Translations under genes and position numbers: made by a program | Virus record (IMG/VR): IMGVR_UViG_3300020598_000119 | Length of the DNA: 64,000 nt | Direction: 5' to 3' (one strand) | Source of the DNA: a virus | Taxonomy: Duplodnaviria > Caudoviricetes | Shown here: positions 18,415-50,616 of the stretch, in pieces | Layout: every line of letters begins with the position of its first letter | Position numbering within the stretch: the stretch's first letter is position 1 | The notes under the pieces: model-generated | The model's input: the letters and a program-made list of their open reading frames with translations, nothing else | Told to the model about the DNA's origin: nothing | The model's database searches: none

Positions 18415-18490
18415 TGGTGCCATCAGCGAGGATCGAACTCGCGACTTTCGGCTCTTCAGACCGACGCTCTACCAACTGAGCTACAATGGC
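18415..18490 (-). tRNA. tRNA-Phe(GAA)
   Basis: TCGGT-CT GAA GA-GCCGA, CCA. Confidence 0.92.
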
Positions 18491-18522
18491 TTAGAAAGGG
18501 CTTTCGCTCTTTCGATGATTTG

Positions 18523-18551
18523 ACTATGCCAGACACAAAAACCTGAGTCAA
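18523..18551 (-). promoter_or_regulatory. sigma70-like promoter immediately upstream of tRNA-Phe
   Basis: TTGACT-N17-CATAGT. Confidence 0.5.
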
Positions 18552-18717
18552 CAACAAAAATAAAAAAAGATAATATTTTCAAACGCTTACATGGAAAATC
18601 AGCATGCAAAAAGGCTTCTCGGGAAGTTCGTTCCCAAGCTAAAAATCAAACATTTCGCTCCTAAATCGAGCCTTTTTTCGCCGTCGTCGTCGCATCGCTT
18701 TCTCCAGTTTCAAGACA

Positions 18718-18766
18718 ATAAAAAAGGCTGGGGCTTCGTACCTTCCGGTAGAAGCCCCAGCCTTTG
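18718..18766 (-). terminator. attenuator terminator of the Phe/Arg tRNA operon
   Basis: AAAGGCTGGGGCTTC..GAAGCCCCAGCCTTTTTT on the minus strand. Confidence 0.8.
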
Positions 18767-18789
18767 CTTTAACAGTGATCAGTCTTAGA

Positions 18790-18876
18790 TCATGTCATGC
18801 GCAAGCGCGTTGGAAGCCATCCGACCGGATGTCCAATAACGCTAAATCGCCGACGAATGATCAAACCAACTGACAT
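18790..18876 (-). CDS. leader peptide MSVGLIIRRRFSVIGHPVGWLPTRLRMT (Arg/Phe control codons)
   Basis: AAAGGGA RBS; CGT CGG CGA TTT; stop about 25 nt before the terminator. Confidence 0.7.
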   Translation of the reverse strand: MSVGLIIRRRFSVIGHPVGWLPTRLRMT

Positions 18877-19335
18877 GTTTTTCCCTTTTAGATAGACCAG
18901 CTTTGGCTTGTTTCATAATTCATTTTCGAATTATGTCCCCACCGCCATTGAGGGGATCCAAATTTGTCATTGATTTGCTATGAAGCACCTCAATGGCGCA
19001 TCTGCACCATGCTTTGACACATAGGGCAGATATTCTGTGCATTAAACGGACAATGCATGATCCACATTAGTATGACCTTGATAATCCACTCACTGTAGCC
19101 ACGTCTCTGCGACGAACGAACCATCTGCGGTTCTTGGTCGAGCAGCTATCAAGCATACTGTGCAAATCAGACATATCCGTTTAATACTATTCACAAATCT
19201 AGCCATATTTAAGAAAATGGCAACTTATTTCTTTTTGCCTTTATGAATTTTTAACAGGGCAATTAAGGCCATCCACGCCATGAGGCGAATTATGAAACAA
19301 GCCACTTATATACAGGTCCCGACAACAGTCAAGAA

Positions 19336-37470: not shown

Positions 37471-37758
37471 TCACATTCGAGGGCCAAGTGTCACGTCCTC
37501 CTCAACCTCGGTAGCAGTGTCTACGCGACTTCTGGCATCCCAGAATGGCTTAAATGCAAAAGGAAGATCAATCCATCTTTGGCCATCGCGCTCACTTGTG
37601 AATGATTCCTTGTTAGTGATGCCGCCTTCGGATTCAAAATCCCGAATAATCTGTTTAGCTATTTCTGTCTCTCGAACGTACAGATCACTCTGATGGCTAT
37701 CGGTTTCGCAACCTGCCTCGACTAGACGTTCATAGAGAGATTTGCGGTCTTCTGTCAT
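37471..37758 (-). CDS. hypothetical protein
   Basis: AAGGA RBS, MTEDRKS...; 'HQSDLYV'. Confidence 0.6.
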   Translation of the reverse strand: MTEDRKSLYERLVEAGCETDSHQSDLYVRETEIAKQIIRDFESEGGITNKESFTSERDGQRWIDLPFAFKPFWDARSRVDTATEVEEDVTLGPRM

Positions 37759-37896
37759 GGATCGTTCCTTGCTCGTGCTTTGAGCCGATAATGAGATCAA
37801 AGCCAGCAAACAACAAAGAAGGCACAAAAATGAGGAAAAAGGGTGACATGATGACCAAAGTACTCATGAAATCGTGAGCAAGAACAGATATCTATA

Positions 37897-37990
37897 TGGT
37901 GCGGACGGCAGGACTTGAACCTGCACGGAGAGTAGCAAGCTCTCCACTGGGACCTGAACCCAGCGTGTCTACCAATTCCACCACGGCCGC
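37897..37990 (-). tRNA. tRNA-Leu(CAG)
   Basis: CTGGG-TT CAG GT-CCCAG, long variable arm, CCA. Confidence 0.9.
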
Positions 37991-38008
37991 ATATTCTTTG
38001 ATTTGACT

Positions 38009-38092
38009 TGGTGTGGACGGCGGGGATCGAACCCGCACGCACGAAGCGGTGAATTTTAAGTTCACTGCGTCTACCTATTCCGCCACGTCCAC
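38009..38092 (-). tRNA. tRNA-Leu(TAA)
   Basis: GTGAA-CT TAA AA-TTCAC, CCA. Confidence 0.92.
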
Positions 38093-38158
38093 ATTTTTTA
38101 TTCGGCGGTAAGTAAGAAGAAGATTGATTGGTTGGTGGTGTCTTCTGCAGGCAGTCAG

Positions 38159-38242
38159 TGGTGCGGCTGAGAAGAGTCGAACTTCCACGGGTTGCCCCAC
38201 AGCGACCTCAACGCTGCGTGTCTACCATTCCACCACAGCCGC
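38159..38242 (-). tRNA. tRNA-Leu(GAG)
   Basis: CAGCG-TT GAG GT-CGCTG, CCA. Confidence 0.92.
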
Positions 38243-38280
38243 ACAGTTCCGCTGATCAACGACGGCGAAGTCACAAGTAT

Positions 38281-38355
38281 TGGAACCGAAGGATGGAGTC
38301 GAACCATCGTCTCTGGAGCCACAATCCAGCGCTCTAACCATTGAGCTACAACGGC
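38281..38355 (-). tRNA. tRNA-His(GTG), mismatched acceptor stem
   Basis: CTGGA-TT GTG GC-TCCAG, CCA. Confidence 0.85.
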
Positions 38356-38365
38356 AAACAGGCAT

Positions 38366-38510
38366 CGCTAAGTAAAGGGACTCGAACCCTTAACGCAGAA
38401 TCGGTCTGGTTCGTATCTGCCATTGGTTTCTGCCATGAACCAGGGGTATGAATACCCATTCGTGATTGGCTTGACCTCAACGTCGTCTACCACTTCCGAC
38501 ATACTCAGCG
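38366..38510 (-). other. tRNA-Leu-like element with about 60-nt internal insertion, no CCA
   Basis: GCTGAGTA/TACTTAGC acceptor, Leu-type D-loop GGTAGAC, CGTTGAGGTC, T-arm AAGGGTTCGAGTCCCTT. Confidence 0.55.
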
Positions 38511-38542
38511 AATTTCGATAAGGACCCGAGGCCCTTGAAACT

Positions 38543-38645
38543 TGGTGGCAGAACAGGCACTTGATCTCAGCGGATGATCAATCCGTGATCTTTGACCAGT
38601 ACGCCGACTCCGACGAATGTACCTAGGATACGTCAGGGTCCTGCC
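38543..38645 (-). ncRNA. tRNA-like RNA (acceptor stem plus ACCA, non-canonical body)
   Basis: GGCAGGAC/GTTCTGCC-ACCA. Confidence 0.4.
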
Positions 38646-38652
38646 ATTTAAG

Positions 38653-38729
38653 TGGTCGGAGTGGCAGGCTTCGAACCTGCGACCTATGGTTCCCAAAACC
38701 ATCGCGCTACCAGGCTGCGCTACACTCCG
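38653..38729 (-). tRNA. tRNA-Pro(TGG)
   Basis: ATGGT-TT TGG GA-ACCAT, CCA. Confidence 0.92.
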
Positions 38730-38794
38730 AATTCTTCATGCACGGGCCGAGCAGCGCCACTGAAGGCAGTAGGTCTCGGCCCGTTAGTTTAACT

Positions 38795-38886
38795 TGGTGG
38801 GGGACGGCTAGAGTTGAACTGCTTGCCGCATAGGGACCCGGTTTACAGCCCGGTGACAGGACCGCCCATCCTTATTGGCGTCCCCC
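38795..38886 (-). tRNA. atypical tRNA with GTA (Tyr) anticodon, 8-bp acceptor stem
   Basis: GGGGGACG/CGTCCCCC-ACCA, D-stem AGGAT/GTCCT, loop CT GTA AA. Confidence 0.6.
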
Positions 38887-38891
38887 ATAAA

Positions 38892-39105
38892 TGGTGGAGA
38901 TGACAGGATTTGAACCTGCGCAGACCGTGATGACCTTCGCATTACCAAAGGCTCCCAATTGGTTTGAAACGCGCTTCCCTACTCGGCCCTCTCTGGCTGT
39001 TTCGGTGCATCCGCAAAGACCCCAATCGAGATTTGTCACGTCCCTGTTTTACCAGAGCCGGATTCCGTTTCCCGGTGCCCATGCCGACCTCAGGCGGACA
39101 TCCCC
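38892..39105 (-). ncRNA. 214-nt tmRNA-like RNA (tRNA-like domain with G3-U70)
   Basis: GGGGATG/CATCTCC-ACCA, T-arm GCAGGTTCAAATCCTGT. Confidence 0.55.
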
Positions 39106-39107
39106 AT

Positions 39108-39185
39108 TGGCTTGAACGGCAAGGATTTGAACCTGCGACCTCCTGGACCCATTCCAGGCGCGCTCCCAGACTGCGCTACATTCAA
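39108..39185 (-). tRNA. degenerate tRNA-Pro-like (TGG, A at position 33)
   Basis: Pro-type D-arm TAGCGCAGTCTGG, CCTGG-AA TGG GT-CCAGG, CCA. Confidence 0.55.
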
Positions 39186-39406
39186 GACAAACTAGATTTG
39201 ACCAAAACATGGTCAGAAACTTTTGGCACTCACAGCGACGCCAAGGATCATCAGTCGCTGTCTCTCCACGGGAGAGGGATCTTCAGGCTCGTCCACGATC
39301 CGCCGCCTGTTCCTAAAAGTGCCACCGAAACAGCAGCTGGCCAGCCGCCATTCCGCAGGCTTCCTGGGATTGTTCTAGAATTTGCCCAGTATAGCCTTTG
39401 AAGCTG

Positions 39407-39489
39407 TGGTGCGGATGAGAGGAATCGAACCTCCACGGTTGCCCGTCAGAACCTAAATCTGATGCGTCTACCAATTTCGCCACATCCGC
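39407..39489 (-). tRNA. tRNA-Leu(TAG)
   Basis: TCAGA-TT TAG GT-TCTGA, CCA. Confidence 0.92.
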
Positions 39490-39519
39490 ATATTTCCCAA
39501 AGGGGAAAAGGAAAAATGA

Positions 39520-39596
39520 TGGTCGGAGCAGCAGGACTCGAACCTGCGACCCCCTGATCCCAAATCAGGTGCGCTACCAGACTGCGCTATGCTCCG
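39520..39596 (-). tRNA. tRNA-Pro(TGG)
   Basis: CCTGA-TT TGG GA-TCAGG, CCA. Confidence 0.93.
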
Positions 39597-39683
39597 TTTT
39601 ATTCAAAAATCATATTTCCATTTCCTCTTCAAGGGGGTCAAATCGAATTTAAAAACTCCATCATCTGACCCCCTTACATAATT

Positions 39684-39766
39684 TGGTACGGCAGAGAGGA
39701 CTCGAACCTCCACGTCAGAGACAATGGATTTTGAATCCACCGCGTCTACCATTCCGCCACTGCCGC
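39684..39766 (-). tRNA. tRNA-Leu(CAA)
   Basis: GTGGA-TT CAA AA-TCCAT, CCA. Confidence 0.92.
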
Positions 39767-39771
39767 AAACA

Positions 39772-39855
39772 TGGTGTAGGGAGTTGGATTCGAACCAACG
39801 TGGATTGCTCAACGGATTTACAGTCCGCCCCTTTCGGCCTCTCGGGCACCCCTAC
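39772..39855 (-). tRNA. tRNA-Tyr(GTA)
   Basis: GCGGA-CT GTA AA-TCCGT, CCA. Confidence 0.93.
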
Positions 39856-39990
39856 AATTCCTCGCAAACCAGCTACCAAGAGAATAACGCGGTGACGGCC
39901 ACGGTATTCAAAGCCAGATTGCTCTGTTCTTGCTCACAATTTCAAAGATCATTCTGCGGGAGCAGAACCCCCTTTCGGGGAAAAACACGC

Positions 39991-40040
39991 AAAAAAAAAG
40001 AAGAACCCTCGTTAGCGGTCGGCCAGCGAGGGTTCTTCTT
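39991..40040 (-). terminator. attenuator terminator of the Leu/Pro/His/Tyr tRNA operon
   Basis: AAGAAGAACCCTCG..CGAGGGTTCTTC followed by T9. Confidence 0.85.
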
Positions 40041-40067
40041 GGTCTGATCGAAGGATTTACTTAAGCG

Positions 40068-40229
40068 TTAAAATCCTTCTTTCGCCAATACAGCCCGCTG
40101 ACCGCAACCCAGATACGGGAGCGGTAACAAATGGGGGGGATGAGGCAGAGCGGAAACGGCACGCGTCAGGGCGACGCGAGCAGAAACTGCCGCAACCTTT
40201 CCCTGTACTGTCTGTGCCGAAGCGTTCAT
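40068..40229 (-). CDS. leader peptide MNASAQTVQGKVAAVSARVALTRAVSALPHPPHLLPLPYLGCGQRAVLAKEGF
   Basis: GAGGA RBS; 13 consecutive Leu/Pro/His/Tyr codons at 40148-40110. Confidence 0.8.
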   Translation of the reverse strand: MNASAQTVQGKVAAVSARVALTRAVSALPHPPHLLPLPYLGCGQRAVLAKEGF

Positions 40230-40274
40230 CGTTCTATCCTCAAAGTTGGCGACTGGAATTCGTCGTGTTGCCTA

Positions 40275-40303
40275 TAGATGAATGACGTCGGCGAAACTGT
40301 CAA
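40275..40303 (-). promoter_or_regulatory. sigma70-like promoter of the leader/tRNA operon
   Basis: TTGACA-N17-CATCTA. Confidence 0.55.
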
Positions 40304-40465
40304 TATGATTTTTGCAATTTCTGATTTTTTATTCCGAGGACGTCCGATGCCGATGAATCATCTCTGAGGCGGATGGCCATTGGATGGCAAAAAGGGGCTG
40401 CAAGAAAATTGTTGGTTTCCAGCAACCGCAGGCACTATCATGAAACAAAATATTGGAGTTTTTCG

Positions 40466-41404
40466 ATGGCAATAGATTTACCTACCGCAGCCATGGCGCT
40501 TATCACCGCACTGGAGAGCGTCACTGGTGTTCAGATTGCTATTCTCGAACGTCGTGATGACCCGGCTGAATTCTGGGCCAGAACCGCAGCAATTCTATGT
40601 GATAAAACAAAACAGAATTGGTGCAGTGAGGACGTTCGCTTCATGACGTCCAATACGGAACTGATGGGGATGTCTCATATAATCGAGTACAACTTCGATG
40701 GGAAGGGGACACGTAGGGTATGCGCACTCCTGCCGCCCATTGCGAACATCGATCCCAATTTCATCGCCAATGCATATGGTTCACCGTATCCGACTATCTA
40801 CGATTTGCCATCGAGTGCGGAAACGGCAAGTTGGCTGATGCTGTATCATGCGGCGCACTGCCTCGACACAGCTCTGTCCGACCAGGAAGAAAACCGAGCT
40901 GTCGCCTTTGCGACTCTAGGGCTTTCGTTGATGGGAGGAGACTACAAGTTTCTGCCAGGAAGGGTACGCTCATCTGCTCGCCAGATTGCGGCCATGACAG
41001 GTAAGGCATCTGGATATTGGGCCGCAGGCACTGGCGAACGCATTCTGATGGATCTCTGGAAGACTGAAACTGGGGACAGGCTCCGGCGCGAGTACGGATG
41101 CTATCCAATAGTGAAACAGAGCAGCTCGATTGATATCGAACGGATTGCACGCGATTCACGCATTCCAGAAGGACAAAACTGCGCTGCAGAAGCAGGTGGG
41201 AACGGTGGTGGCATGCGTACGAACCCGCAGGGCACAATCACGGACGCCAACCTGTGGCTTTGGCTATATGGGCCTCAAAGTGGAGGAACGTCATCACCAA
41301 GGCTTGGCGTGCCCCCGAAGGACTACTATCCGTTTAAGACCTTCAAGGACTTCAGCACCGCCGCCTCTTACGTATTAGAGACAGCCAACAAGCTAGCGCA
41401 GTGA
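40466..41404 (+). CDS. hypothetical protein
   Basis: start taken at MAIDLP; 'YHAAHC' is an HExxH-like motif lacking Glu. Confidence 0.55.
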   Translation: MAIDLPTAAMALITALESVTGVQIAILERRDDPAEFWARTAAILCDKTKQNWCSEDVRFMTSNTELMGMSHIIEYNFDGKGTRRVCALLPPIANIDPNFIANAYGSPYPTIYDLPSSAETASWLMLYHAAHCLDTALSDQEENRAVAFATLGLSLMGGDYKFLPGRVRSSARQIAAMTGKASGYWAAGTGERILMDLWKTETGDRLRREYGCYPIVKQSSSIDIERIARDSRIPEGQNCAAEAGGNGGGMRTNPQGTITDANLWLWLYGPQSGGTSSPRLGVPPKDYYPFKTFKDFSTAASYVLETANKLAQ

Positions 41405-41710
41405 CGGTGTCGCTGACGGACGGAGTTCGTTGGCACGTCTGACGAGATCGTCGTGCCATGCCTTGGCTTCTGCGTCTGTGTAGGGCCTATAACAGCCAGA
41501 CCCCCAATCGGAATGAACGTAGTTATAGTCTGCGTCGACCTCCAGCGCATCTGCAGCCGCCGACAGGAGTGCAGTGTCAGGGCCAGTGAAGCGATCCTCA
41601 GGGGCGTCGAATTCGGGGTCGTAGTTCGGCGATAAGTTTGCATGCTTCTCAACGAACGCCCTGATTTCGGCGGCCAATGATCGACGTTCATCTGTCATTT
41701 CAAGCTCCAT
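41393..41710 (-). CDS. hypothetical protein
   Basis: 105-aa ORF. Confidence 0.5.
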   Translation of the reverse strand: MELEMTDERRSLAAEIRAFVEKHANLSPNYDPEFDAPEDRFTGPDTALLSAAADALEVDADYNYVHSDWGSGCYRPYTDAEAKAWHDDLVRRANELRPSATPSLR

Positions 41711-41794
41711 AGTTCCGACTAATGATCAAAACTTACCCTTGAACGCTACAAACGAGCGAAAAAGAGAAAAAATTAAAAAATGCAAAAATGGCCA

Positions 41795-41823
41795 TTGACA
41801 CATTCCGCCGTCTAATTCATATC
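41795..41823 (+). promoter_or_regulatory. sigma70-like promoter of the Ser/Gln leader
   Basis: TTGACA-N17-CATATC. Confidence 0.55.
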
Positions 41824-41847
41824 TAGGGAAGATCAAGGAGTTTAGAA

Positions 41848-41940
41848 ATGTTCGTTCAGTCGTCCCAACAGCAATCCAGCCAGTCGAGTTCATCAAGCTC
41901 GAACGCGGTGCTGTGCGCGGTGACTGATCCGAAAATCTGA
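41848..41940 (+). CDS. leader peptide MFVQSSQQQSSQSSSSSSNAVLCAVTDPKI
   Basis: AAGGAG RBS; 15 consecutive Ser/Gln codons. Confidence 0.85.
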   Translation: MFVQSSQQQSSQSSSSSSNAVLCAVTDPKI

Positions 41941-41965
41941 CCTCAATATCAGATCAAAAGGTTTC

Positions 41966-41992
41966 AGAACCCGCCCAAAAGGCGGGTTTTTT
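41966..41992 (+). terminator. attenuator terminator of the Ser/Gln tRNA operon
   Basis: AACCCGCC-caaaa-GGCGGGTTTTTT, 6 nt before the first tRNA. Confidence 0.85.
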
Positions 41993-41998
41993 GTATGC

Positions 41999-42090
41999 GG
42001 AAACATGGCTGAGAGGCTTAAAGCAGCGGTTTGCTAAACCGTCAGGGAGGTAAAATACCCTCGGGAGTTCGAATCTCCCTGTTTCCGCCA
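41999..42090 (+). tRNA. tRNA-Ser(GCT)
   Basis: GCGGT-TT GCT AA-ACCGT, long variable arm, GCCA. Confidence 0.92.
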
Positions 42091-42131
42091 CGAATTCGAA
42101 TTTTCTGTCCGCAGGGAATTCAAACAAATAC

Positions 42132-42219
42132 GGAGCTGTGACCGAGTGGCTTAAGGTGGCAGTCTTGAAAACTGATGCGGCTAACCCCGCCGTAGGTTCG
42201 AATCCTACCAGCTCCGCCA
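42132..42219 (+). tRNA. tRNA-Ser(TGA)
   Basis: CAGT-CT TGA AA-ACTG, GCCA. Confidence 0.9.
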
Positions 42220-42253
42220 CAATTTTGGCTTATTTATTTATGGGAGAAGGGCC

Positions 42254-42457
42254 ATGACAGTACACGAAATAAATGCTCCGGTTGATGCCGTAGACGCAGC
42301 TGTCATGGCCCTTGTGGAAGCCCATGTTGATAAGGCTCAACAGGCCAGAGAACGATCCAATCTGAGGGGATGGTTCGTTGGCCAGACGATGAAGCAGCTT
42401 AATGGAACTGCAGAGCGTCAAACAGTCGAAATCGCAGTGAATAAGGCACTGCAATAA
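42254..42457 (+). CDS. stand-alone GatB/YqeY C-terminal (tRNA-binding) domain-like protein
   Basis: 'LRGWFVGQTMKQLNGTA' resembles the GatB tail 'GFFVGQVMK..KGKA'. Confidence 0.6.
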   Translation: MTVHEINAPVDAVDAAVMALVEAHVDKAQQARERSNLRGWFVGQTMKQLNGTAERQTVEIAVNKALQ

Positions 42458-42492
42458 TAGGAGTTTCGGCCTAATAAATGGGCCAAAGAATT

Positions 42493-42582
42493 GGAAAGAT
42501 GGCAGAGTCCGGTTGATTGCACTCGCCTCGAAAGCGAGCAAGCCGCAAGGCTTCGGGAGTTCAAATCTCCCTCTTTCCGCCA
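42493..42582 (+). tRNA. tRNA-Ser(CGA)
   Basis: CTCGC-CT CGA AA-GCGAG, GCCA. Confidence 0.92.
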
Positions 42583-42588
42583 GCACGT

Positions 42589-42662
42589 TGGGGATTAGTT
42601 TAATGGTAGAACGGCGGACTCTGAATCCGTTGGTCCTGGTTCGAGTCCAGGATGCCCAGCCA
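42589..42662 (+). tRNA. tRNA-Gln(CTG)
   Basis: U1-A72, GCGGA-CT CTG AA-TCCGT. Confidence 0.9.
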
Positions 42663-42679
42663 AGAATTACGAAATAAAT

Positions 42680-42754
42680 TGGGGCGTCGCCAAGCGGTAA
42701 GGCATCGGTTTTTGGTACCGACATGCGGAGGTTCGAATCCTCCCGCCCCAGCCA
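42680..42754 (+). tRNA. tRNA-Gln(TTG)
   Basis: U1-A72, TCGGT-TT TTG GT-ACCGA. Confidence 0.92.
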
Positions 42755-42778
42755 TTTTCGTAGTTAATTCGTTAAATT

Positions 42779-42866
42779 GGAGCCGTGGCAGAGTGGTTGA
42801 ATGCACTCGCTTGGAAAGCGGGCAGACCGCAAGGTCTCGGGAGTTCGAACCTCCCCGGCTCCGCCA
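42779..42866 (+). tRNA. tRNA-Ser(GGA)
   Basis: CTCGC-TT GGA AA-GCGGG, GCCA. Confidence 0.92.
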
Positions 42867-42888
42867 ATTATTAAATAAGGAAAAATCC

Positions 42889-43125
42889 ATGAGCAATGAG
42901 TCGATTAACATCAAAGAACACGTCACTGCAGGACCGTGCACACTCGTTTGCGCGCGAGCAGGCAATCTCTGGTATCGAACTGCTCTTGGATTTGAATTCC
43001 CAGTGCCTTTCTCGGATATGGGTGACGCGACTTTCTCGTCCGAGGAGAAAGGCATGATGCTCATGCGCTACATCCGAAAGCACAATGAAACGATCACTGC
43101 TGCGCGACAACAACAAGTCGCGTAG
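42889..43125 (+). CDS. small phage-like hypothetical protein inside the tRNA operon
   Basis: AAGGA RBS; 'LWYRT..GFEFPVP.SD.GDATF...EK....MRYIRK'. Confidence 0.65.
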   Translation: MSNESINIKEHVTAGPCTLVCARAGNLWYRTALGFEFPVPFSDMGDATFSSEEKGMMLMRYIRKHNETITAARQQQVA

Positions 43126-43161
43126 GCAGTCGTCTTTCTCTCATTAGACGACTTTTGATGA

Positions 43162-43236
43162 TGCCGAGTCGTCTAATGGTAGGATCTGAGCCTTTGAAGC
43201 TACAGGACGTGGGTTCGACCCCCACCTCGGCATCCA
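43162..43236 (+). tRNA. tRNA-Gln(TTG), atypical bulged anticodon stem
   Basis: TGCCGAG/CTCGGCA-TCCA, AGC-CT TTG AA-GCT. Confidence 0.7.
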
Positions 43237-43263
43237 ATTTTAGCCTTGATTACAAAACTTATA

Positions 43264-43539
43264 TCACTTGGAATTGACGGGTGAGTAAGCGTTTGGAATT
43301 GCCCAGTCTCTGGGAAATCTTAAGCCAAATCCCCCACTCTCATCCAGCTCGATGAATTGGACGCCACGTTTCTCCAGCGCCTTCTTAATGCGCAGCTTTG
43401 TTTCAAGTCGTATACCGACGTTCGTTTCCAATTTCGATATTGTCTTGGGGCTGACGCGTGCCGCGATAGCAAGTTCTGCCTGACTGAGGTTCAGACCAAT
43501 CCTCGCGAGGCGCAGTAAGGGCGGCGGCGGCGTATTCAT
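43264..43539 (-). CDS. XRE-family HTH regulator
   Basis: 'RLARIGLNLSQAELA..A.VS.KTISKLE...ALEKRGVQFI'. Confidence 0.85.
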   Translation of the reverse strand: MNTPPPPLLRLARIGLNLSQAELAIAARVSPKTISKLETNVGIRLETKLRIKKALEKRGVQFIELDESGGFGLRFPRDWAIPNAYSPVNSK

Positions 43540-50190: not shown

Positions 50191-50409
50191 ATCGTTGTCA
50201 AAATTAGGTAATGAAGCTGAATTTATCCTGTTTTAATCACCTGAAATTGTCAACCAATTTGCACTGCGCCTGTGATTTAAAATAAACACGATTTATCGAA
50301 ACTGCCTTAAATCAAGAGATTTAAGGAATTATCGAGGACCGTATCTATTGCGCCGATGGCCGAATTAAACATATTATGCAAAATCCATTTAACAAAGAAG
50401 GTACAGCAA

Positions 50410-50616
50410 GTGGAAGTTAAGGTTCGCGATAATCAGGTTGATAAGGCACTTCGAGTTCTCAAGCGAAAGCTGCAGGCAGAAGGCATTTTCCGTGAGATGC
50501 GACAGCGCGAGTTTTATGAATCTCCATCGGAAAAGCGTCGCCGCGAAAAAAACGAAGCTACACGCCGTTATCAGCGCGAGCGTCGCAGGCAAGCTGAAGC
50601 TGACCGTCGTCGCTAA
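50410..50616 (+). CDS. rpsU: 30S ribosomal protein bS21
   Basis: '[37 protein letters not shown]'. Confidence 0.93.

Follow-up and report, generated by a model that had tools for sequence, protein, structure and literature searches.

The stretch of DNA analyzed here (the window) is a 64,000-nucleotide (nt) sequence from IMG/VR virus record IMGVR_UViG_3300020598_000119. Between positions 41795 and 43236 it carries, on the plus strand, an operon of serine and glutamine transfer RNA (tRNA) genes headed by a short open reading frame (ORF) with an unbroken run of Ser and Gln codons. An earlier sequence-only reading, made without database searches, had proposed that this operon is controlled by a Ser/Gln attenuator, and the leader ORF (41848-41940) and the codon list given there are correct. 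The control region comprises the following features.

41795..41826 (+): promoter P1, with -35 hexamer TTGACA at 41795-41800, a variable spacer of 16 nt and a conserved -10 block at 41817-41826
41835..41840 (+): Shine-Dalgarno (SD) sequence AAGGAG, with the ATG 7 nt downstream (direct reading of the sequence)
41848..41940 (+): leader ORF of 30 codons, with TGA stop at 41938-41940
41857..41901 (+): control run, leader codons 4-18, 15 consecutive Ser/Gln codons, QSSQQQSSQSSSSSS
41851..41933 (+): anti-antiterminator (1:2), formed by region 1 at 41851-41880 (core 41856-41866) and region 2 at 41905-41933 (core 41917-41927)
41915..41974 (+): antiterminator (2:3), with outer helix 41915-41921 / 41969-41974 and inner hairpin 41935-41940 / 41949-41954
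41966..41992 (+): intrinsic terminator (3:4), with G+C-rich stem 41966-41975 / 41981-41990, a 5-nt loop and six T at 41987-41992

The succession of SD sequence, ATG, 15-codon run, stop codon, terminator and tRNA is that of a classical attenuator. The terminator lies where it had been placed from the letters alone, and 6 nt separate its T tract from tRNA-Ser(GCT), the first of seven tRNA genes that lie within 1.24 kb, together with two small ORFs.

41999..42090 (+): tRNA-Ser(GCT), ARAGORN and Rfam
42132..42219 (+): tRNA-Ser(TGA), ARAGORN and Rfam
42254..42457 (+): ORF of 67 amino acids (aa), a stand-alone GatB/YqeY tail domain (Pfam PF02637)
42493..42582 (+): tRNA-Ser(CGA), ARAGORN and Rfam
42589..42662 (+): tRNA-Gln(CTG), ARAGORN and Rfam
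42680..42754 (+): tRNA-Gln(TTG), first copy, ARAGORN and Rfam
42779..42866 (+): tRNA-Ser(GGA), ARAGORN and Rfam
42889..43125 (+): conserved 78-aa ORF, with 49 homologues, found inside the tRNA arrays of many elements
43162..43236 (+): tRNA-Gln(TTG), second copy, ARAGORN and Rfam, more divergent than the other six tRNAs

Codon run and promoter

The control run consists of ten Ser and five Gln codons (TCG three times, TCC, TCA and AGC twice each, AGT once; CAG three times, CAA twice), so that five of the six Ser codons (TCT is absent) and both Gln codons are represented; in the long ORFs of the element these two amino acids together account for 10% of codons. When all stop-free 12-codon segments of the window were scanned in six frames (~83,000 segments), the leader run emerged as the sole segment with a score of 12/12, fully cognate to the anticodons of the array, and the next best reached 8/12. 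The same scan of 389 kb of the related replicon in the nearest relative returned the same leader as the single top Ser/Gln segment, 133 nt upstream of the array and on the same strand. In these 389 kb a Thr/Trp/Cys/Arg array likewise has its unique top matched segment just upstream, and for a Leu/Pro/His/Tyr array the segment just upstream is tied for top (10/12, equaled by one unrelated site). Since the top matched segments sit just upstream of their cognate arrays, the match between codons and tRNAs is a property of the system rather than a coincidence.

The one-for-one correspondence between run codons and downstream anticodons that had been proposed at the outset holds in that a Watson-Crick codon is present for all six anticodon species; coverage of this kind is by itself statistically unremarkable in a run of ten Ser and five Gln codons. 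The interpretation of the run as a microsatellite, doubted in the sequence-only reading on account of its mixed synonymous codons, was rejected, as Tandem Repeats Finder reports no repeat there.

The P1 motif occurs twice in the window, once before each of two divergent leaders, compared with 0.21 matches expected by chance, and in eight relatives its hexamers are invariant while the spacer varies in sequence at constant length. Between the terminator and the tRNAs, sigma-70 and motif scans revealed no promoter-like site and neither of the two promoter motifs of the element. The earlier contention that the tRNAs can be made only by read-through is borne out insofar as no bypass promoter was detected, the word "only" being drawn from the absence of detectable promoters.

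Competing folds, conservation and the other arrays

The whole leader has a minimum free energy of -58.9 kcal/mol (z -4.4; 0 of 200 shuffles as good), and its three helices are ranked by energy as in classical attenuators, with -32.8 kcal/mol for the 1:2 helix alone, whose region 1 lies within the codon run, -19.4 kcal/mol for the 2:3 antiterminator and -15.6 kcal/mol for the 3:4 terminator. The antiterminator proposed in the sequence-only reading is indeed the minimum-energy fold of 41915-41975 (z -3.7; 0 of 200 shuffles as good). The alternative partner of region 2 is 41964-41974, by which five of the six core bases of the terminator 5' arm are taken up, and the inner hairpin of the antiterminator has the stop codon in its 5' arm. 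In folds calculated with a ribosome footprint masked, an RNA ending at 41976 adopts the antiterminator when region 1 is covered, as in a stall early in the run, and the terminator is adopted when the ribosome masks the stop codon or when no ribosome is present. None of the leader families in Rfam reaches its gathering score (the best, Leu_leader, has 21.3 bits against 50, with an E value of 0.61, and matches the terminator part only), and across positions 37500-43500 the T-box model has no match at E values up to 1.

The nearest genome is that of Mesorhizobium sp. SP-1A (contig NZ_JAVXZD010000002.1), in which the operon is 97-98% identical. Similarity between the two begins at the promoter, which indicates that promoter, leader and array behave together as a recombining cassette; upstream of the promoter (window 41760-41830, compared also with the metagenome relative L057) the DNA is unrelated and SP-1A has a different gene. 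Metagenome relatives, L057 and L058 among them, were found through the embedded 67-aa ORF, and all of them retain the leader, even though the protein encoded by this ORF in L057/L058 is only 67-69% identical to the window copy. Identities to L057/L058 are as follows.

Untranslated region and SD sequence: 100%
Ser/Gln run: 93%
Terminator: 96% (96-100% across relatives)
tRNAs: 84-99%, with six of the seven at 91-99%
Spacers: 58-94%, most of them 58-86%
67-aa ORF, DNA: 74%

The leader is thereby conserved at a level like that of tRNAs, while spacers and neighboring genes drift. All four substitutions found within the run in relatives are synonymous, some of them changing the isoacceptor class, and the C-terminal third of the leader peptide changes freely.

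More distant relatives were reached through the 78-aa ORF; these are Agrobacterium rubi GCA_013320875, GCA_900471375, a 1.43-Mb metagenome contig, and a contig of GCA_036704275 with 70% guanine plus cytosine (GC), the sequence of which is quite different from the window. In each a promoter-like site, a Ser/Gln-rich leader and a terminator are followed by a Ser/Gln tRNA array; the leader runs have 13-15 Ser/Gln codons, interrupted in two cases by a single Asn codon. In each, a G-rich segment after the run pairs with the terminator 5' arm around a different inner hairpin that again holds the stop codon, and folds equivalent to the antiterminator were obtained in five divergent relatives. The A. 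rubi Leu/Pro/His array also has a matched leader and terminator. A search with the leader DNA in 401 genomes of the family returned only Mesorhizobium sp. SP-1A, the other matches being generic terminator hairpins; the INPHARED (phage) and PLSDB (plasmid) collections gave matches at the level of tRNAs only, with no related element. A contig scan with the GatB-tail alignment found one true relative, again Mesorhizobium sp. SP-1A, the remainder being housekeeping GatB genes.

The window holds 21 tRNAs in three separate clusters across 25 kb. The Leu/Pro/His/Tyr array (39855-37897, minus strand) is divergent from the Ser/Gln operon, shares its P1 promoter motif and is preceded by a leader ORF (40229-40068) in which Leu/Pro/His/Tyr codons form a run of 13. 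The segment after this run pairs with the 5' arm of a strong terminator (-37.4 kcal/mol), and the leader follows the same 1:2 / 2:3 / 3:4 logic as the Ser/Gln leader. The Phe/Arg array shows weaker matches and, between its leader and the tRNAs, an extra promoter-like motif, in keeping with the initial judgment that the Ser/Gln leader is the clearest instance.

Several further observations concern these two arrays. In the Phe/Arg array (window 18490-18880, minus strand) a first small ORF contains an RRRF motif and is succeeded by a terminator, and a second ORF has five Arg codons at its start and Phe codons at its end. After this second ORF stands a strong UP-element/-35 motif, seen within the window only there; in the related replicon the motif precedes four arrays (Phe/Arg, Lys, Glu/Asp and the large Asn-Val-Gly-Ala-Met-Ile-Thr array). 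The Phe/Arg UP-element promoter could bypass the terminator at that array. Between the Pro/His/Leu tRNAs (window 38360-38520 and 38790-39105, minus strand) there are tRNA-like acceptor ends and T arms without an ARAGORN call, one stretch giving a weak match (19 bits) to the transfer-messenger RNA model. The score of the tRNA at 39108-39185 is just 31.8 bits, and a different anticodon is called for it in the relative. All of these may be tRNA genes that have been interrupted or permuted or are in decay.

Proposed mechanism, alternatives and carrier replicon

The interpretation favored here, with a probability of about 0.8 on the sequence evidence, is that the Ser/Gln operon is governed by a ribosome-mediated leader-peptide transcription attenuator whose regulated genes are the tRNAs. 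The sequence elements, the alternative folds, the match between codons and tRNAs and the conservation are matters of observation. What marks a leader-peptide attenuator is found at this locus: a short SD-led ORF, a run of cognate codons and an intrinsic terminator before the regulated genes and, in silico, an antiterminator incompatible with the terminator as well as an anti-antiterminator overlapping the control codons.

From these elements we infer that the leader is translated, that ribosomes stall and polymerase reads through, and what the physiological trigger may be. Transcription would start from P1 and the leader would be translated while being made. With ample charged Ser- and Gln-tRNA the ribosome would clear the 15 codons, reach the stop codon and cover region 2; because the stop codon lies inside the antiterminator, a finishing ribosome would leave the terminator hairpin to form, and the transcript would end near 41992, 6 nt short of the first tRNA gene. 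If any Ser or Gln isoacceptor were scarce or uncharged, the ribosome would stall in the run and mask region 1, and the freed region 2 would pair with the 5' arm of the terminator before the 3' arm is transcribed, so that polymerase would read through into the seven Ser/Gln tRNA genes and the two small ORFs. If the leader were not translated at all, region 1 would pair with region 2 and the terminator would form. Such a device would act as a supply-and-demand homeostat for Ser/Gln decoding, its loop being closed because the products of the operon are the very molecules that would relieve the stall.

Several results weigh against this interpretation. At equilibrium the combination of terminator and inner hairpin (-33.4 kcal/mol) is more stable than the full antiterminator, even without region 1, and read-through must therefore depend on the kinetics of co-transcriptional folding. 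In the simple masking model only stalls within about the first nine codons of the run free region 2, and later stalls, including those at both TCA codons, would require queued ribosomes to do so. The shuffle control for the antiterminator is moderate, 0-6% of mononucleotide shuffles per leader doing as well; folds of single sequences and shuffles were used instead of covariation because the competing helices are nearly invariant in the relatives that can be aligned, which accordingly offer no true covariation support. P1 was not called by a generic sigma-70 scan. Finally, an attenuator is unable to tell a shortage of tRNA from a shortage of amino acid.

This last property underlies the best of the alternatives, which we nonetheless consider unlikely, namely that the natural signal is Ser/Gln starvation or general translation stress, with the tRNAs as passengers and the two small proteins as the real cargo. 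Leader-peptide attenuators sense the availability of charged tRNA whatever the cause, and in trp and his attenuation, too, the causes cannot be distinguished; moreover, both conserved ORFs lie in the operon, one of them encoding a tRNA-Gln-related GatB tail domain. However, extra tRNA does not relieve amino-acid starvation, and other arrays also carry tRNA-matched leaders (clearly so for Leu/Pro/His/Tyr and Thr/Trp/Cys/Arg, more weakly for several others), whereas the two small ORFs were seen in none of these; it is the tRNAs, furthermore, that are the best-conserved cargo.

Less likely still is a fixed, leaky terminator that would allow a low constitutive level of tRNA, the small ORF serving transcript stability or processing or giving rise to a trans-acting RNA or peptide. 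The preference for the terminator at equilibrium fits this possibility, as does the trans action of attenuator-derived RNAs and peptides known from Sinorhizobium meliloti (PMC6614838 and PMC7298713). It leaves unexplained, however, why the run is restricted to amino acids carried by the tRNAs that follow it, both at this array and at others, why the run undergoes synonymous changes only while the rest of the peptide varies, and why the stop codon is always found within the structure that competes with the terminator. A chance low-complexity Ser/Gln ORF before a terminator and tRNA genes, for which one might cite Ser-rich low-complexity stretches elsewhere in the replicon scoring up to 10/12, is highly improbable and effectively refuted, as the 12/12 segment is unique in the six-frame and 389-kb scans, lies on the same strand as the array and no more than 133 nt from it, has counterparts at other arrays, is about as well conserved as the tRNAs and reappears in distant relatives that differ in nucleotide sequence.

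The two small ORFs of the operon are of interest in their own right. The 67-aa ORF matches Pfam PF02637 with an E value of 3.5e-7 and 30.6 bits (cut-off 27), and its nearest relatives outside such elements are the C-termini of alphaproteobacterial GatB. In GatCAB the GatB tail domain binds tRNA-Gln, and this analogy suggests that the 67-aa protein may assist in amidating or handling the tRNA-Gln of the element. The family of the 78-aa ORF comprises 49 small homologues, and in every context examined its gene lies within or next to a set of tRNA genes. Among these contexts are low-GC, phage-like contigs, in one of which the gene translates only with TAG read as Gln; distant homologues (L161, L163 and L164) lie in mixed tRNA arrays on low-GC, phage-like contigs. 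The confident model of the 78-aa protein (predicted local distance difference test score, pLDDT, 88) shows a beta-sheet and a long C-terminal helix, with no fold match in the PDB and no Pfam family. Between the 78-aa ORF and the end of the operon (window 43126-43236, plus strand), an 8-bp hairpin with T residues stands before the last tRNA-Gln(TTG), which ends in TCCA rather than GCCA and, with 84% identity to the L057 copy, shows the lowest conservation among the seven; this tRNA may be separately gated or specialised.

The carrier is a giant accessory replicon, judging by its gene content, and not an evident phage. The window has 50% GC and the related 1.19-Mb contig of Mesorhizobium sp. SP-1A ~51%, in contrast to the 62-66% of the other sampled contigs of that assembly. 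On the 1.19-Mb contig there is no match to small-subunit ribosomal RNA, HK97 capsid, Terminase_6N or VirB4, and PHROGs and Pfam revealed no phage structural genes among the neighboring ORFs. Genes in the window include those for a TraG/TrwB-like coupling protein, PcfJ, a Sno-type helicase, C5 methylases and an integrase. In the related replicon, 45 tRNAs that together serve all 20 amino acids are grouped into seven clusters across 130 kb, and homologous arrays are found on 1.1-1.4-Mb contigs in other assemblies. An ORF at 50356-50616 (plus strand) has features typical of ribosomal protein bS21, and its syntenic counterpart in L057-L059 matches Pfam Ribosomal_S21, from which it appears that the element also brings a ribosomal protein.

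If the operon is attenuated through its leader peptide as proposed, two triggers are jointly the most likely. One is the demand of an element with 50% GC, rich in TCT, TCA, AGT and CAA codons, in a host with 62-66% GC; GC content at third codon positions is 56% in the element versus 79% in the host, and these four codons are several times as frequent in the element as in the host. The other is that host tRNAs are lost to toxins or defences directed against tRNA. The tRNA-Gln(TTG) at 42680..42754 is 93% identical to a chromosomal tRNA-Gln of Mesorhizobium sp. SP-1A and has an identical anticodon arm, so that evasion by mutation of the anticodon loop is not evident for this tRNA, and resupply stays compatible with the finding.

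Relation to known systems

Phage and plasmid tRNA sets have been read as codon compensation or counter-defence (PMC10264068, PMC11555353 and PMC12409363), and tRNA array units are treated in PMC4758250 and PMC12803027. A unit of this kind has at least 20 tRNA genes at a density of at least 2 per kb (PMC4758250), a definition that fits neither the seven tRNAs of the Ser/Gln operon nor the scattered clusters of the window (21 tRNAs in 25 kb) and of the related replicon (45 in 130 kb). Resupply of tRNA after a tRNA-targeting attack exists as an idea in PMC10264068, PMC11555353, PMC12409363 and PMC12803027. As in these systems, a mobile replicon here carries its own tRNAs (for all 20 amino acids) and differs strongly from its host in GC content and codon usage; leader-peptide control of tRNA genes, on the other hand, did not emerge for PMC10264068, PMC11555353, PMC12409363, PMC4758250 or PMC12803027 from abstracts and term searches of full text. 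Full-text literature searches, which covered papers outside subscription-only access, likewise returned no published case of leader-peptide (trp-operon-style) control of tRNA genes, and no described case of a tRNA class regulated by the decoding of its own codons. Viewed against this literature, the wider proposal is that a family of giant accessory replicons of the Rhizobiales carries a complete tRNA set in amino-acid-specific operons, at least several of which are separately switched by leader peptides that test the decoding speed of the respective codons; as a general, unpublished form of closed-loop, isoacceptor-class-specific control of tRNA supply, this seems to us somewhat better than an even bet. 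In bacteria, control of tRNA genes is generally placed at initiation, by growth rate and the stringent response.

If this proposal is true, a foreign low-GC element would be translationally self-sufficient in a high-GC host and would recover from tRNA-targeting attack. The device, if it works as set out above, would offer a simple natural means of sensing how well chosen codons can be decoded, and would provide a direct read-out for the depletion of tRNA by toxins and defence systems; it would also explain how a costly tRNA set can be borne by large mobile replicons and phages and yet not be overexpressed. Because near relatives occur in cultured strains (Mesorhizobium sp. SP-1A, Agrobacterium rubi), these ideas are testable by ordinary genetics.

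Ribosome-mediated attenuation is established in this host lineage by trpL of S. meliloti (PMC6614838). Like that leader and the multivalent attenuators of amino-acid operons (ilvGMEDA, thr, his, leu and pheA of E. coli and Salmonella), the Ser/Gln leader has a short SD-led ORF with control codons, an intrinsic terminator and four RNA regions whose 1:2, 2:3 and 3:4 pairings exclude one another. As in the multivalent attenuators, its stop codon would let a finishing ribosome block the antiterminator, and a single leader would sense more than one amino acid. The 15-codon run is longer than the control runs of the classical leaders. A Phe-rich leader attenuator precedes the phenylalanyl-tRNA synthetase genes pheST of E. 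coli, and there, too, a gene of translation serving the sensed codons is attenuated through a leader peptide; pheST, however, controls the synthetase and hence charging, whereas the Ser/Gln device would control the tRNA genes themselves. T-box riboswitches similarly couple the state of a specific tRNA to terminator read-through upstream of translation-related genes, but they bind uncharged tRNA directly and need neither ribosome nor ORF, in contrast to the leader ORF used here. To our knowledge, all leader-peptide attenuators described control genes for amino-acid biosynthesis or transport or for synthetases, and the Ser/Gln tRNA operon is none of these. What would be new here is that the regulated genes of the attenuator are tRNAs: unlike the attenuators of amino-acid operons, that of the Ser/Gln operon would control tRNAs rather than biosynthetic enzymes, and its loop would be closed through the supply of tRNA and not that of amino acids.

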